Positions 14,629 through 25,021 of a stretch of 64,000 nucleotides of DNA are shown here, one piece after another (the first letter of the stretch is position 1; each line of letters starts with the position of its first letter). The notes beneath the pieces are model-generated. The model was not told the DNA's origin. It did no database searches and saw only the letters and a program-made list of their open reading frames with translations. Source of the stretch: a virus. The position numbers and the translations under genes are program-made. The stretch is taken from positions 1 to 64,000 of the IMG/VR virus record IMGVR_UViG_3300011116_000796, one strand, 5' to 3'.

Positions 14629-16905
14629 ATGCCTAGAAACTTCAACGAATACATTCAAGACGATGGTGATGGAGTAGTCTTCGCAGAACTATCCTCTGCT
14701 AGACCATTACCAAATGGTTCTAAAGTTATGCTCGTTAATGACGGCCTCATGGGGTTTGAGGCTGGTACGATGTTCACTGTTTCAAACAGAATCAATTGTG
14801 TTGATGGGGAGATACATCGATACAAAGGTATTGGTGAAGCCTATCTTTTAGATGACAAAGGTAATCCCCACATCCTGAAAGCAGGAGGGGAAATACTTAA
14901 CAACTCTTTCATACTCGTTGAGCGAAAGCAGAGCGAGCCTGTGCAGGAGATTGTCGAATCAATCACACCTTCAGAGGAACCTGAATCTGTTTCAACTCCA
15001 GTTGTTGTGGAGCGTGTTGTGACACAGGTTGAGCGTGGTCCTGAAGGCGTTCCGGGCGTCCGTGGTTCCCGTGGCCCACAAGGTCAAAGGGGTGATAGGG
15101 GCGAGAAGGGGGACAAGGGAGATCGTGGGGAAATTGGTCCCCGTGGTGCCCAGGGTCTCCGAGGAGAAAAAGGTGAGCGAGGAGAACAAGGTGAGAAAGG
15201 CGAAAAGGGAGATTCGGGACCGCAGGGAACCCAAGGCATCCAAGGAGTTCAAGGAATTCAAGGGGAAAAGGGTGAGAAGGGTGAGAGAGGAGAACCCGGT
15301 CCACAAGGTATTGCTGGCCCTAAAGGCGAAGGCGGCGAAAAGGGCGAAAGAGGTGAACGAGGCGAGAAAGGCGAGAAAGGCGATGCGGGGGAGCAAGGCG
15401 AAAAAGGCGACAAGGGAGACCAAGGCCAGCCTGGCCCTCAAGGCGTTCAAGGAGTGGATGGACAGAGTGGGCCTATAGGACCAAAGGGCGACAAGGGTGA
15501 CAAGGGTGATCGTGGAGAAAAGGGTGCTGTTGGTCCTCAAGGTGAAGTTGGTCCGAAGGGCGACATTGGTGCTAAAGGAGAGCAGGGGGACAAGGGAGAC
15601 AAAGGCGACATGCCATTTTTGTCTGTCCAACAACCCCTTGTCATCAACAACCAAAGACTATCAATCGATCTAACTAAACTCAAGAAGACTATTGGGTCGG
15701 GCGCACCCGTTTTATATGATGGTGGTGGTGGACTTGGAGAAGCCTTCAAGTTCGTTTCCGTTTCCGGTCAGTCTGGTCTTACTGCTGTTCAGTATGACAA
15801 GGAAACTCTGACATTCGTAGCGGGAACAAACATTGCACTTGCTACGGACCCTGACAATAATTCCATCACAATCAGCAGTGTTGGTGGTCAGGGTAGTGTG
15901 GGACCAACAGGTCCAACAGGTGCGCCTGGAGCAGGCGTTGCAGGCAACAATGACATTGGTGTAATGTACCTGAAGAACAATACCACCGCCACAACCATAA
16001 CAGCCATAAACCAAAGAGCAGTGGTTGCTGGTGACATGACCGCTGGTGCGCTGTTCAACTTTCAAAAGCACGCAAGCACAAACTCGCTGCAATACCTTGG
16101 GGCGAGTGGCAAGTTCCATGTGGTTGCCACATTCAACTTCACCGTTGCTGCAAGTCAAAACACTTGTGGATTCTATGTGGGCAAGAACACAAACATCAGC
16201 AGCGGATTGAGTGCTGATGGAGATCGCATTTCTGAATCAGAAGTGTACATTACTTGCCCAAGTCAAAGCAATGCTATTGCTGGCGCAATTCAGACCATCG
16301 TGGATTTGAACACTAACGACCGCTTGTTCTTTATTGTTCAGAACAGAAGTCAAGCAAAAGACATTACTGTTGAGTTCCTGAAGTTCGTGGCAGTGCCGCT
16401 CACATCAGAGCGTGGAGCCACGGGTGCAACAGGAACAATTTCTTCAGATTATGTCTCGGGCATCAACGGTATCACGGGTGCGCTAGGTCTTACAGTAGGA
16501 GGTAGAATTACCCTTACGATGACTGGTTCCGATGGCAAGACATTCCGCCTCTACAGCAAGCCATATGCCACAGTTAAGGGAACTTCTGGTGCGATTGCAT
16601 GGGCAGATGACACCGCACCCTTTGAAGGGGATGGATTTGACTTAGGTGCTGCAAATTCTTTTAAGTACAACTTCACAGGTGATCTTTCTGTCGAAATGCC
16701 AGCAAGTCTAAAGATTGGTACTCAAAATAGCGACAGTTTTATATTGTTTGGTGATGGTACGACACAAGGGACGGCATCAAAGTGTTGCCCAATACCACTC
16801 GCAACCACGGGTTCTACGGGTGTTGCATCATTCAATCCATCGAATTTTGCTGTTTCTGCCACTGGTCATGTGAGCATAACTACTATATCAGGGGGAGTGT
16901 TCTAA
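14629..16905 (+). CDS. Collagen-like fibre protein ending in ISGGVF
   Basis: Long uninterrupted Gly-X-Y run (~15040-15610), then YDGGGGLG, fibre-type repeats and a C-terminal GGxF. Confidence 0.85.
15037..15610 (+). repeat. Collagen (Gly-X-Y)n coding repeat
   Basis: [13 protein letters not shown] triplets, about 190 aa. Confidence 0.9.
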
Positions 16906-16915
16906 ATAAATTCCC

Positions 16916-22871: not shown

Positions 22872-24269
22872 ATGTCAAAGCAAAGCACAATTCAACACTA
22901 CTTCTCGCTCACGCCCGCAGGCGTACCCGCAGGCGCAGGAATGACTTATGGTGAAATCGCTATCAATGTTGCTGACGAGAAACTGTTCATTGAGAATGTG
23001 AATGGTGATGTTATTTCTCTCTCGCAGACAAAGGATCTATCGGGAGCATTTGCACACTCTGATCAGGTTGTAACTTCGGTGAATGGTGCTACTGGTGCAA
23101 TTATAAATGTCGCATTCACAAATACTGCACAGACCTTTACAGGATTGCAGACCTTTGCCAACGGTATTACCGCTGTGGGCGGAACCTTTGGAAATATCTC
23201 AGCAGCGGGAGCATCTTTCAGTTCTGACATATTTGTTCAGGGTATTAGAGTTGGTAGGGGTGGTGCGGGAGATGCGAACAGCGTTGCCGTTGGCGCAGAT
23301 GCACTACCGGCAGGAACATTCAATGTTGCTATCGGAAAAAGTGCGCTGCAAGCAGCAGTTAGTCCAAACAACAATGTTGCAATTGGTTGGCAGTCTCAAA
23401 TGTCGGGAGATTCTCCAATCAACAATGTTTCTGTTGGTGCAAACTCCCTTAGATTCAATCAATTTGGTCAGGGTAATGTTGCCATTGGGTACGAGGCACT
23501 CTACACCACAAATAATAATGCAAATACAGCCGTAGGTTCTATGGCACTTCGCCAAACAACAACTGGATTCAGAAATACTTCAATTGGTAATGAATCTCTT
23601 TACAACAATACTCTAGGTGTTGCTAATGTTGCAATTGGTCATCAGGCAGGAAGATATCGTGGAGAGTTCACTCTATTTGACTTCCCCAATGATTTAGACA
23701 ACGAAGATGTTTCTGCGCTAACAAGAACAACAGGAACAGGCGGCATCTACATTGGTCAATGGTCGAGAGCATCTGCAAACGGAACCGTAAAAGAAATCGT
23801 GATTGGTGCAGAGGCACTTGGTCTCGGTTCAAATACGGCGGTGATTGGTGCAACTTCACAGGTTTCCGCAACCATTTACGGAACTTTGAATCTGCCAGGT
23901 GGGTTGAGTGCTTCAAGTGGAGCAACATTTAGTGGAACAGTTTCGTCTGACACTGGGTATAGAATTACCTCAAGTGCGATCAACACACAGACCGGAACAT
24001 CCTATTCGATAACGGGAACTGACAACGGAGAAATACTAACATTTAACAATGTATCGGCAACGACTCTAACTGTCCCTTCGGGACTCCCTATTGGATTCAA
24101 CTGCACTGTTATACAACTCGGACTCGGACAAGTTGGGTTCACAGCGGCAGCCGGTGTTACTCTCAACAGTTATGGAAATCTCATCAAGATTGCAGGACAA
24201 CATGGTGCTGCTACTTTGGTGTCCTATCAAAGTAATGTATACAATATTGCAGGAACATTAAGTACATGA
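22872..24269 (+). CDS. Distal fibre/adhesin with Mtd_N-like head and YadA/Hep_Hag-like NxAxG repeats
   Basis: MTYGEIAINVADEKLFI; NVAIG..AL, NTAVGSMAL, NTSIG repeats; C-terminal TLTVPSGLPIGF...YNIAGTLST. Confidence 0.7.
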   Translation: MSKQSTIQHYFSLTPAGVPAGAGMTYGEIAINVADEKLFIENVNGDVISLSQTKDLSGAFAHSDQVVTSVNGATGAIINVAFTNTAQTFTGLQTFANGITAVGGTFGNISAAGASFSSDIFVQGIRVGRGGAGDANSVAVGADALPAGTFNVAIGKSALQAAVSPNNNVAIGWQSQMSGDSPINNVSVGANSLRFNQFGQGNVAIGYEALYTTNNNANTAVGSMALRQTTTGFRNTSIGNESLYNNTLGVANVAIGHQAGRYRGEFTLFDFPNDLDNEDVSALTRTTGTGGIYIGQWSRASANGTVKEIVIGAEALGLGSNTAVIGATSQVSATIYGTLNLPGGLSASSGATFSGTVSSDTGYRITSSAINTQTGTSYSITGTDNGEILTFNNVSATTLTVPSGLPIGFNCTVIQLGLGQVGFTAAAGVTLNSYGNLIKIAGQHGAATLVSYQSNVYNIAGTLST

Positions 24270-25021
24270 TAATTCCGTCTTTCAAGGCGGGATATACTAG
24301 AGTACCCCGTCTTATTTCAACTACAAATATTACATCGACAGGAACACAAAATTATACTGTTCCTGCCGGGACAATTTATCTTGAGATAGAAATAGTTGGC
24401 GGTGGCGGTGGTGGTGGTGCAGGAAGAACACTAACTTCTGGAAGAAATACAAGATATCATGGTGGCGGTGGTGGAGGTGGCGGTGGTTATGTCAAATACA
24501 CATATCGTGGAAGTTTGCATGGCGGTTTCAAAGTAGGAGATACTTTGAGTTTTACTGTAGGAACCGCAGGAACTGCTGGTAGTGGAAGCAGTAGTGGAGG
24601 AAACGGCGGAAACAGCACACTTAACTCACATACGCAAAATTCCATCCCTCAATTGTTTCTAACTGTTCCTACTGGCGGTGGTGGTGGCGGTGGAGAAACA
24701 GAGTCAACATATAACACAACTGCTTCCGGTGGAGTAGCAGGAGTTGCTTCTAATGGAGATATCAATACAAATGGAAATGCTGGTTCTCCCGGATCTGCTC
24801 CTAGCGCATCTGCGAGTAACGGTGGCAATGGAGCATTGAATGGTGGTTCATCAACATTCGGTAACACTACTGTAGCATCAGGAGGAACATCGGGAAGTAC
24901 AGTAGGTGGAACAGGGACTCAGCCGGGTAATGGTGGTGGGGGTGGATATAGTTCATCTACATCGAATGCTAATGGTGGTGATGGTGGGGCGGGACAAGTT
25001 AGAATAAAGGCATATGGATGA
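24266..25021 (+). CDS. Glycine-rich fibre tip (gp38-like adhesin) protein
   Basis: YTVPAG...IEIVGGGGGGG...GGGGGGGGY...GGDGGAGQVRI; ATGA-coupled to the upstream gene. Confidence 0.7.
   Translation: MIIPSFKAGYTRVPRLISTTNITSTGTQNYTVPAGTIYLEIEIVGGGGGGGAGRTLTSGRNTRYHGGGGGGGGGYVKYTYRGSLHGGFKVGDTLSFTVGTAGTAGSGSSSGGNGGNSTLNSHTQNSIPQLFLTVPTGGGGGGGETESTYNTTASGGVAGVASNGDINTNGNAGSPGSAPSASASNGGNGALNGGSSTFGNTTVASGGTSGSTVGGTGTQPGNGGGGGYSSSTSNANGGDGGAGQVRIKAYG

Follow-up and report, generated by a model that had tools for sequence, protein, structure and literature searches.

Repeated gp36-gp37-type joints probably link the tail-fibre proteins of a marine T4-like phage

Introduction

Can the order in which the pieces of a phage tail fibre are joined be read from the ends of neighbouring genes? 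The question is raised by a cluster of seven genes in the IMG/VR virus record IMGVR_UViG_3300011116_000796, of which positions 1 to 64,000 form the window analysed here. Multi-protein fibre assembly is, to our knowledge, understood in outline for T4 and very few other phages, and in uncultured phages most fibre genes lack annotation. An earlier note on this DNA had observed that four genes of the cluster end in a GGxF peptide (here called the plug) and that each is followed by a gene with a common N-terminal domain (the head), and it had proposed that the plug docks in the head of the next subunit, so that gene order would equal assembly order.

Results

Plugs and heads in the gene cluster

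All seven open reading frames, here called A to G, are present at 14629-25021 on the plus strand. Gene A (14629-16905, 758 aa) would encode a proximal segment; it lacks a head, contains a collagen triple-helix region (Pfam Collagen, PF01391, E 2.1e-32, four stretches of Gly-X-Y repeats), ends with the plug ISGGVF directly before the stop codon (16885-16902), and has a homologue of 82% identity in the related sequence L001. Gene B (16916-17962, 348 aa) opens with a head at about 16916-17065, as indicated by the head alignment and a head HMM match, and has no plug. Gene C (17969-18703, 244 aa) has an N-terminus of its own that starts with MPITG instead of a head, matches phrog_23630 of the PHROGs, and ends with the plug ITDGGYFVS (18674-18700), in which two extra residues, VS, follow the aromatic residue; C-like N-termini also come after B-like genes in the relatives L001, L003, L006, L019, and L252. 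Both a head and a plug are found in D (18742-20289, 515 aa; head about 18742-18900, plug IDGGTF at 20269-20286) and in E (20327-22858, 843 aa; head about 20327-20476, plug IAGGTF at 22838-22855). The two share repeats and modules that are 62-80% identical, and by this resemblance they are clear paralogues; the C-terminal domain of D is conserved in an alignment with 10 homologues. Gene F (22872-24269, 465 aa) opens with a head (about 22872-23030) and ends without a plug, and gene G (24266-25021, 251 aa), whose start overlaps the stop of F by 4 nt, is glycine-rich and has neither.

The genes at 16916, 18742, 20327, and 22872 thus open with an alignable head of about 50 residues, with 10 invariant columns and 34-38% identity to the first head. 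They are separated from the preceding plug genes by 10, 38, 37, and 13 nt, always on the same strand, and the plug-less genes at 16916 and 22872 are followed by the head-less genes at 17969 and 24266. The pattern that had been described for the cluster was therefore fully reproduced from the reading frames and the alignment. Taken alone, this in-cluster match is weak evidence, as a perfect offset match of four tails and four heads over six adjacent pairs has a chance probability of 1/15. The Asp of the consensus is missing from the plugs of both A and E.

A six-frame scan of the full contig of 119,654 bp found exactly four heads and five open reading frames ending in GGx[FY]. The fifth plug gene (56581-57183, plus strand, 200 aa) lies directly after a gp5-like hub gene and ends with VVDGGDF (57163-57180), and all three homologues that were found (75, 43, and 42% identical) end with IIDGGDF or IVDGGEF. 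The gene that follows it has no head, and in this genome plugs are thus followed by heads in four of five cases. All four heads of the contig already adjoin a plug.

As to the nature of the segments, F matches phrog_4636 (tail spike) and phrog_6002, and its relatives are called tail spike or virion structural protein; homologues in L001 (90% identical) and L002 (73%) each come after a gene ending in GGTF. A YadA-like label that had been given to F found no support in Pfam, of which no family matched at E<=0.1, and a regular-expression search for YadA-type head repeats returned only three motifs resembling N-x-V-[AS]-[IV]-G. The labelling of E as a carbohydrate-binding (CBM) segment can be kept as a lead only: residues 63-258, approximately, gave an ESM Atlas feature score of 0.87 and TM values of 0.57-0.68 to CBM_4_9 clusters, and Pfam CBM_4_9 (PF02018) did not match at E<=0.1. 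Protein G matches Gly_rich_2 (PF21722; E 2e-16, 61.2 bits against a cutoff of 24.3) over profile positions 1-226 of 226, and also phrog_863 (tail fiber assembly), and it may be a tip protein or an assembly factor.

The head belongs to the family of the gp37 N-terminus

A profile built from the four window heads found 3687 representatives at E<=0.001, and among the best 150 of these, 144 carry the head within their first 9 residues. A profile of these 144 N-termini matches residues 1-56 of T4 gp37 (E 8e-14) and a gp37-like protein of Krischvirus (E 1e-14). The product of the gene before gp37 ends with DFGYY in T4 (gp36) and with IDFGTF in Krischvirus, and the window plugs resemble this D-x-G-x-aromatic end. 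In T4, according to a review (Leiman, 2010), gp36 attaches as a trimer to the N-terminal region of gp37. We found no residue-level description of this joint in those parts of the literature that were accessible to us, and no paper describing the GGxF plug motif.

The head had also been likened to Mtd_N, and this relationship proved to be distant. Pfam Mtd_N (PF18454) matched none of the four window heads, neither as whole proteins at E<=0.1 nor as 60-aa N-termini at E<=10, and it matched 10 of 58 head-family members at E<=0.01. T4 gp37 has no Pfam match either, and hhalign against Mtd of the Bordetella phage BPP-1 found nothing. The model of the E head reached a pLDDT of about 90 over residues 10-45. 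Structural comparisons of the head model gave a weak match to Mtd residues 5-49 (chain 1yu0; 42 residues aligned at an rmsd of 2.5 A, Z 3.7) and a Z of 3.4 to the N-terminus of the streptococcal phage hyaluronidase HylP, and Foldseek gave no match at E<=0.001.

Plug and head are associated in other viral DNA

In a survey ascertained on heads (125 sources, 1211 unique adjacent gene pairs), 41 pairs had tail and head, 25 a tail without a head, 45 a head without a tail, and 1100 neither (odds ratio 40, Fisher p 6e-35). The statement that every GGxF end is followed by a head thus does not hold in general, since it fails for 56581-57183 as well as for 25 of the 66 strict plugs in this survey. Of the 86 heads, 45 have no plug upstream. 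The other survey was ascertained on tails, with 120 viral contigs chosen solely by DNA encoding IDGGTF and a stop, and in 52 of the 85 evaluable cases the directly following gene has a head, with 7 more heads one gene further on. Six of the 33 next genes without a head match were picked by eye, and two of these pass the Pfam threshold for Mtd_N. When the upstream genes were fibre segments, a plug was followed by a head in 9 of 17 cases, whereas genes without a plug were followed by one in 5 of 71 (p 5e-5). The association of plug and head across other DNA is far beyond chance. It should be noted that each survey selected its DNA by one motif of the pair and that de-duplication at 70% identity leaves shared descent in place.

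In the junction plugs, each of the four codons for Gly and each of the two for Asp occurs, 43 of 48 junctions have the aromatic residue itself as the C-terminus, and spacers range from -47 to +64 nt. Because the codons vary freely and the spacer lengths differ, no DNA element is conserved, and by these comparisons selection at the plug acts on the protein level. The plug-bearing junction proteins range from 52 to 806 aa, are unalike upstream of the motif, and include mini-proteins of 52-130 aa. Covariation between plug and head columns was driven by single clades. In several other contigs, a small coiled-coil-like open reading frame separates the plug gene from the head gene.

Fused forms in relatives

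Relatives encode the same pieces in the same order as single proteins, and in these the joint is absent. A 776-aa protein of L003 combines an A-like N-terminus and a collagen region with the body of B (61% identity over B residues 81-348), and it has neither plug nor head. In L001, an 806-aa protein starts like C, continues with D/E repeats, and ends like E. In the fused forms, A+B and C+D/E, both motifs have been lost together, which supports the proposal that segments of such a fibre can be added or skipped.

A complex model of D and E

One pair was modelled as a complex, namely a trimer of the D C-terminus with a trimer of the E head (3+3 copies). The model scored 0.84, and the best of three controls, among them one with an unrelated protein in place of the head, reached 0.01. 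Of 80 solved complexes, 58 reach the mark used for the score, as do 2 of 110 mismatched pairs; these counts are approximate here because custom alignments and 3+3 copies were used. Runs agreed in at least 93% of contacts, with a partner pLDDT of at least 80. In the predicted interface, residues 3-13, 17, 19-20, and 28 of the head face tail residues 106-115, and these last ten residues of D are paired with the first strand of the E head. Neither domain has a sequence match among PDB chains, and it is therefore unlikely that the score stems from the memory of a solved complex. The model thus supports a binding of the D plug to the E head.

Discussion

Our data suggest, with a probability of roughly three in four, that this marine T4-like myovirus builds its tail fibres from segments that are encoded in the cluster and connected end to end by repeated joints of the gp36-gp37 type. 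Very probably, the GGxF end and the head of the next gene make up a physical joint, each forming one half of it, and the docking proposed in the earlier note gains support from the D-E model, the T4 homology, the surveys, and the fused forms of relatives. In this joint, the upstream, virion-proximal partner would be a trimer ending in a short strand of the form hydrophobic-[D/S/A]-G-G-x-[F/Y]-COOH, and the downstream, distal trimer would begin with the four-stranded domain of about 50 residues that belongs to the gp37 N-terminus family. The model predicts a geometry of beta-strand addition, with each terminal strand lying parallel to the first head strand around the three-fold axis. No such joint connects B with C or F with G, and the order of the genes would therefore describe two sub-chains, which from proximal to distal read A-B and C-D-E-F, and not a single seven-piece fibre as had been proposed. 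The A-B sub-chain probably ends distally with the plug-less protein B, and the C-D-E-F sub-chain with the plug-less protein F as its distal tip.

It could be argued that the shared ends were merely inherited, with tandem duplication or recombination carrying a gene boundary whose motifs never touch. Two of the four window pairs are indeed not independent, given the paralogy of D and E, the junctions are inherited, as seen from their synteny with L001, L002, and L003, and the clade-driven covariation fits as well. Yet the plug occurs on unrelated proteins down to mini-protein size, no boundary element is conserved in the DNA, fusions drop both motifs together, and the D-E model passes its controls; the T4 counterparts, moreover, are known to bind (Leiman, 2010). 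We consider mere inheritance quite improbable. Even less can be said for a chance line-up of short motifs in one cluster: the in-window probability of 1/15 would permit it, but the association in the 1211 pairs, the 52 of 85 tail-ascertained cases, and the size of the head family make it barely conceivable.

Somewhat more weight, although it also appears unlikely, has to be given to a role of the D-G-G-x-F strand in its own protein, as a trimerization or folding nucleus or as a chaperone tag, with heads following because genes are clustered in assembly order. Phage fibres commonly rely on C-terminal folding nuclei and on dedicated chaperones, and the coiled-coil-like reading frames between plug and head genes and the many plugs without an adjacent head, including that of 56581-57183, would agree with such a role. 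The chaperones of T4 are described in the review (Leiman, 2010). A general folding nucleus, however, leaves unexplained that the terminal segments B and F and their homologues lack the motif, and even among fibre-segment genes a plug still predicts a head. The collapse of the model score upon replacement of the head by an unrelated protein also speaks for the joint.

The joint between segments, as we propose it, has its closest counterpart in the T4 long tail fibre. There, too, genes 36 and 37 are adjacent, as a plug gene in the window directly precedes a head gene, the gene order of the distal half-fibre (gp34-gp35-gp36-gp37) runs from proximal to distal, and the window phage has a T4-type baseplate. 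In contrast, the joint occurs once in T4, whereas the window phage would use it four times in one cluster and has a fifth plug encoded in its baseplate module. At position -3 the window plugs carry Gly, and those of coliphages and an enterobacterial prophage Phe or Leu, one plug-bearing window protein (A) is collagen-like, and the window phage has neither a gp35-like knee nor a gp34 homologue. With Mtd and HylP, the head shares the principle of a small N-terminal beta domain that opens a trimeric receptor-binding protein. True Mtd_N heads also come after IDGGTF genes (L157, L224), whereas the gene before mtd in BPP-1 ends with GGIA and not with a plug. In the anchor-and-branch receptor-binding systems of Klebsiella, G7C, and CBA120-type phages, a conserved N-terminal piece of one fibre or spike docks on another virion protein, and T4 gp10-like branching domains provide side-by-side attachment. 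The docking principle and the exchangeability of modules are thus alike, but those systems are not known to use a C-terminal peptide that is joined end to end to a gp37-type head.

If a six-residue C-terminal motif and a 50-residue head mark the joint, a genome reveals how many segments a fibre has and how they follow each other, the receptor-binding piece at the distal end is identifiable as the segment with a head and without a plug, and split and fused forms become recognizable as the same fibre. The old gp36-gp37 interaction of T4 gains a residue-level hypothesis that is easily tested, and a natural connector suggests itself for laboratory work on host range in which fibre segments are exchanged between phages. 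A wider reading, which we regard as tentative and somewhat short of an even chance, is that the D-G-G-x-F/Y strand and heads of the gp37-N/Mtd_N type form a general, sequence-readable plug-and-socket that is shared by tailed phages of very different kinds. It would join segments in series, would be gained and lost by gene fission and fusion, and, being carried also by free adaptors of 50-130 aa and by a baseplate-module protein, would anchor fibres to the virion as well. If this is true, fibre architecture and assembly order are predictable from genomes, and segments are exchangeable by design. It speaks against the joint that in podovirus-like contigs a protein of 67-89 aa that ends with DGGTY or a close variant adjoins a head-less gene, and that at the few loci checked the head gene is found kilobases away.

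Results

The window forms the first 64 kb of a 119,654-bp contig and its source is a T4-like myovirus; the gp6-like baseplate protein (58563-60494) matched 2547 phage records, the best of them from Pelagibacter phage HTVC008M with 39% identity. Its fibre cluster comprises seven co-directional ORFs, termed A to G in gene order, that lie between a thyX-like gene on one side and a methyltransferase-like gene on the other. We call the C-terminal GGxF-type peptide the plug or tail, and the N-terminal domain of about 50 residues the head. A (14629-16905) contains a collagen triple-helix domain (Pfam E 2e-32), has no head and ends in ISGGVF; B (16916-17962) has a head and no plug; C (17969-18703) has no head and ends in ITDGGYFVS; D (18742-20289) and E (20327-22858) possess both, with the plugs IDGGTF and IAGGTF, respectively; F (22872-24269) has a head and no plug; and G (24266-25021), a Gly_rich_2 protein (E 2e-16), has neither. 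B to F matched no Pfam family at E<=0.1, and the PHROGs assignments of A, F and G fall in tail fibre, tail spike or fibre-assembly families. Neither the cluster nor protein D had a match in the GenBank phage collection by DNA or protein search, and the search for related loci yielded no relative with protein D and three loci with alignment A4. D and E are paralogous (19465-21966), with modules of 62-80% protein identity that differ in order and copy number, and repeats of this type also build a protein of more than 2323 aa at the related locus L002.

The heads of B, D, E and F can be aligned, with ten columns invariant across all four, while the plug-bearing C-termini are dissimilar upstream of their last five or six residues. 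B and F, which lack a tail, are followed by C and G, which lack a head, and the comparison of ORFs and heads thus bears out the earlier note in its description of four GGxF ends, four heads and two pairs in which a plug-less gene precedes a head-less one. A scan of the whole contig found exactly four heads and five ORFs with a GGx[FY] end, so that the claim that a head follows every GGxF holds for the four plugs of the cluster but not for the fifth, at 56581-57183, whose next gene is head-less. A perfect offset match has a chance of 1/15 in the cluster alone, and D and E are paralogous; taken alone, the window is thus poor evidence of an association.

Larger samples were obtained by two surveys. 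The profile built from the four heads had 3687 matches at E<=0.001 among 1.84 billion representative proteins, 73 of them at E<=1e-10. Of the best 150, many of which are fragments, 144 have a match that begins within the first nine residues, and 28 carry a GGx[FYW] end of their own, followed by no more than three residues. The first survey covered loci found through heads together with the window's own genome (125 sources, 1979 ORFs of at least 50 aa), and its 1635 adjacent same-strand pairs were reduced to 1211 junctions by collapsing those at least 70% identical. With a strict tail definition, 41 junctions had tail and head, 25 a tail only, 45 a head only and 1100 neither (odds ratio 40, p 6e-35); when position -3 could be Gly, Ala or Cys, the corresponding counts were 48, 31, 38 and 1094. 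The second survey collected IMG/VR loci by a DNA pattern for I-D-G-G-T-F-TAA alone. In at least 120 loci, 116 ORFs end in IDGGTF, of which 94 are unique and 85 evaluable; in seven loci the pattern does not coincide with the end of a called ORF. Among the loci listed, a head is present in the next gene in 52 of the 85 cases and in the second gene in seven more, and 42 of the 94 tail genes are themselves head-bearing. Six of the 33 head-negative next genes were picked by eye, of which two pass the Mtd_N gathering score, two have a sub-threshold match and two have none. The adjacency of plug and head that the earlier note proposed to survey is thus found from both directions. Each survey is biased to one motif and de-duplication leaves shared descent, and the p-values therefore overstate independence. 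The clustering of fibre genes alone is insufficient as an explanation, as among head-bearing upstream genes a head follows 9 of 17 with a plug and 5 of 71 without (p 5e-5, to be read with the same reservation).

A DNA-level cause of the pattern, such as a conserved promoter or coupling signal across the junction, was ruled out by the variation of codons and spacers. Every one of the four Gly and two Asp codons occurs in the 48 head-ascertained junctions, spacers range from -47 to +64 nt, the upstream proteins have 52-806 aa, and the aromatic residue is the very last one in 43; together, these features argue for a constraint that acts on the C-terminal peptide and not on the DNA. The consensus of 97 unique junctions, about half of which were preset to IDGGTF by ascertainment, is [I 76, L 8, V 3]-[D 82]-[G 90, A 5, C 2]-G-[T 74]-[F 82, Y 15]. 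The hexamer TAAATA was also rejected as a junction signal, as its sites sit past the stop codon and their frequency in the window does not exceed chance. Covariation of plug and head gave high z-scores at head columns 5-12, but these trace to one small clade with Ala at -3, and IDGGTF was preset by ascertainment in half of the data; we therefore do not count the covariation as evidence.

The complex of the D plug with the E head was modeled with three copies of E residues 1-80 (58-row alignment) and three copies of the last 115 residues of D (11-row alignment). As the earlier note had anticipated for C-terminal and following N-terminal trimers, an interaction is predicted, with a score of 0.84 against 0.01 for the best of three controls. 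Among solved complexes, 58 of 80 attain the score mark, and among mismatched pairs 2 of 110, rates that hold only roughly here because we used our own alignments and multiple copies. Of the controls, the one with a replaced head gave 0.01, and the D-E score therefore does not merely reflect the trimer of D itself. Contact agreement between the runs was at least 93% and the pLDDT of the partner at least 80. Neither the head nor the C-terminal domain of D had a match among PDB sequences in profile searches, and the memory of a solved complex is thus an unlikely source of the prediction. The model supports binding of the D plug to the E head. On the tail side, the confident contacts involve residues 106-115, the C-terminal decapeptide LVARIDGGTF; on the head side, they involve residues 3-13, 17, 19-20 and 28. 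Head residues 5, 6, 8, 10 and 12 pair with tail residues 107, 109-110, 110-112, 112-114 and 114-115, respectively, and the plug would thus add to the head as a parallel strand, with some of the predicted contacts between copies near the three-fold axis. Pro19, which is invariant in the head family, and Ala28, which is nearly so, both fall in the confident interface. Gly25 and Glu26, also invariant, are absent from the list of contact residues.

Discussion

The binding of gp36 to the start of gp37 in the distal half of the T4 long tail fibre is textbook knowledge. The distal rod is described as (gp36)3-(gp37)3, without residue detail in the available passages of a T4 preprint (2026). The head profile matches residues 1-56 at the N-terminus of T4 gp37 (E 8e-14) and the N-terminus of a gp37-like Krischvirus protein (E 1e-14). 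The genes directly before these end in DFGYY (T4 gene 36) and IDFGTF (the Krischvirus counterpart), and in a Buttiauxella prophage IDLGTF precedes a head. Judged by the gp37 homology of the head and by the ends of the preceding genes, plug and head are the two ends that meet at the gp36-gp37 joint, and the plug-bearing protein is the proximal partner. T4 has a single such joint, whose plug ends in DFGYY, whereas the plugs of the window have GG at the corresponding place (IDGGTF, IAGGTF, ISGGVF). The gp36-gp37 contact itself is known; no paper was found that gives the C-terminal motif or the serial reuse of the joint. A full-text search for the motif spellings, over main texts mostly outside subscription journals, found no phage paper, and the main-text passages available from the A-1(L) tail paper, the T4 preprint and the RBPseg paper do not describe the joint at residue level. 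We regard the joint as real and general, and its mechanism as plausible and testable. HTVC008M is the closest cultured relative as judged by the baseplate protein; its whole genome contains neither a head nor a real plug, only a chance FGGYEKS, and both motifs are thus absent together.

The earlier note had also called the head Mtd_N-type (PF18454, the N-terminus of BPP-1 Mtd). This link is real but distant: Mtd_N matches 10 of 58 members of the head family, but in Pfam it matches neither the window heads nor T4 gp37. The comparison of the head alignment with BPP-1 Mtd by hhalign gave nothing, and Foldseek found no match at E<=0.001. The AlphaFold2 model of the head has four strands (pLDDT about 90 over residues 10-45) and superimposes on Mtd residues 5-49 with Z 3.7 and an rmsd of 2.5 A over 42 residues, a match that does not surpass those of unrelated trimerisation domains, which reach Z 4.6.

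Fusions at related loci lend independent support to the joint, as relatives encode these pieces in unchanged order within single chains. At L003, a protein of 776 aa resembles A at its N-terminus and in a collagen region (37% over 323 residues, non-collagen flanks included) and continues with the body of B (61% identity to B residues 81-348), without the plug of A and without the head of B. At L001, a close relative, the N-terminus of an 806-aa protein resembles C (37% to C residues 1-224), D/E-type repeats come next, and the C-terminus resembles E (66% to E residues 677-843) and finishes with GGTF; the gene that follows is an F-like head gene. The large D/E-repeat protein of L002 has the same GGTF-type end before an F-like head. 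The number of joints thus differs between close relatives.

The idea that gene order spells out a single seven-segment fibre is not supported, as plug and head are missing between B and C and between F and G; the joint gives two sub-chains, A-B and C-D-E-F. B-type genes are regularly followed within a few bases by a gene starting with MPITG or MGITG, the C-type N-terminus (stop/start 17962/17969 in the window, 7564/7567 in L001, 3886/3888 in L003, 10969/10973 in L006, 6028/6037 in L019 and 3538/3540 in L252), and the C-type neighbour is kept even where A and B are fused (L003). The B-C adjacency may represent a second, different kind of fibre joint.

The fifth plug, which the earlier note had missed, belongs to a 200-aa protein (56581-57183) encoded directly after a gp5-like hub gene and ending in VVDGGDF. 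In its three homologues (75, 43 and 42% identity) the C-terminus is always IIDGGDF or IVDGGEF, and the residues just preceding the plug vary. The conservation of a plug in the baseplate module points to a possible further use of the joint, the attachment of a head-bearing fibre to the virion. Each of the four heads in the genome already has a plug beside it.

The adjacency of plug and head is not universal. In podovirus-like contigs, a protein of 67-89 aa that ends in DGGTY or a close variant adjoins a head-less gene, and the head gene is kilobases away (few loci checked); in one contig group, the proteins before heads have quite different ends. Plug gene and head gene can also be separated by a small coiled-coil-like ORF (66-174 aa), as in L003 (6239-6454), L009 (10975-11439), L254 (3859-4059), L046, L047, L053 and L062; the window has no such ORF, which could encode an assembly factor or hinge. 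Plug-ending mini-proteins of 72-129 aa with a head gene next occur in L011 (2031-2249), L008 (9726-9989), L009 (8698-9087) and L254 (1946-2167). Their N-termini carry a motif like FP/P..S/P...Y.....W.WNG..W in three of the four (not in L254), and they resemble adaptors by which another anchor would be converted into a plug. In L006 (14385-15960) and L019 (10972-12442), the gene after a plug-ending protein of 131-133 aa starts, in place of the head, with P..P.DGEGYTF..V.W, which may be an alternative plug partner.

The methyltransferase-like gene (25018-25575; phrog_15480, E 1e-24) directly follows the glycine-rich gene G, and genes that resemble it by N-terminal sequence are found in the corresponding place in L001, L002 and L019; it may be part of the fibre module. 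TAAATA, which resembles a T4-type late promoter and occurs 43 times in the window against 42.8 by chance, is found at 14607, 16903, 18718, 20307 and 22856, 10-25 nt 5' of the starts of A, B, D, E and F, and is absent before C and G. C starts 6 nt past the stop of B, and G overlaps the stop of F by 4 nt. These positions suggest the transcription units A, B-C, D, E and F-G.
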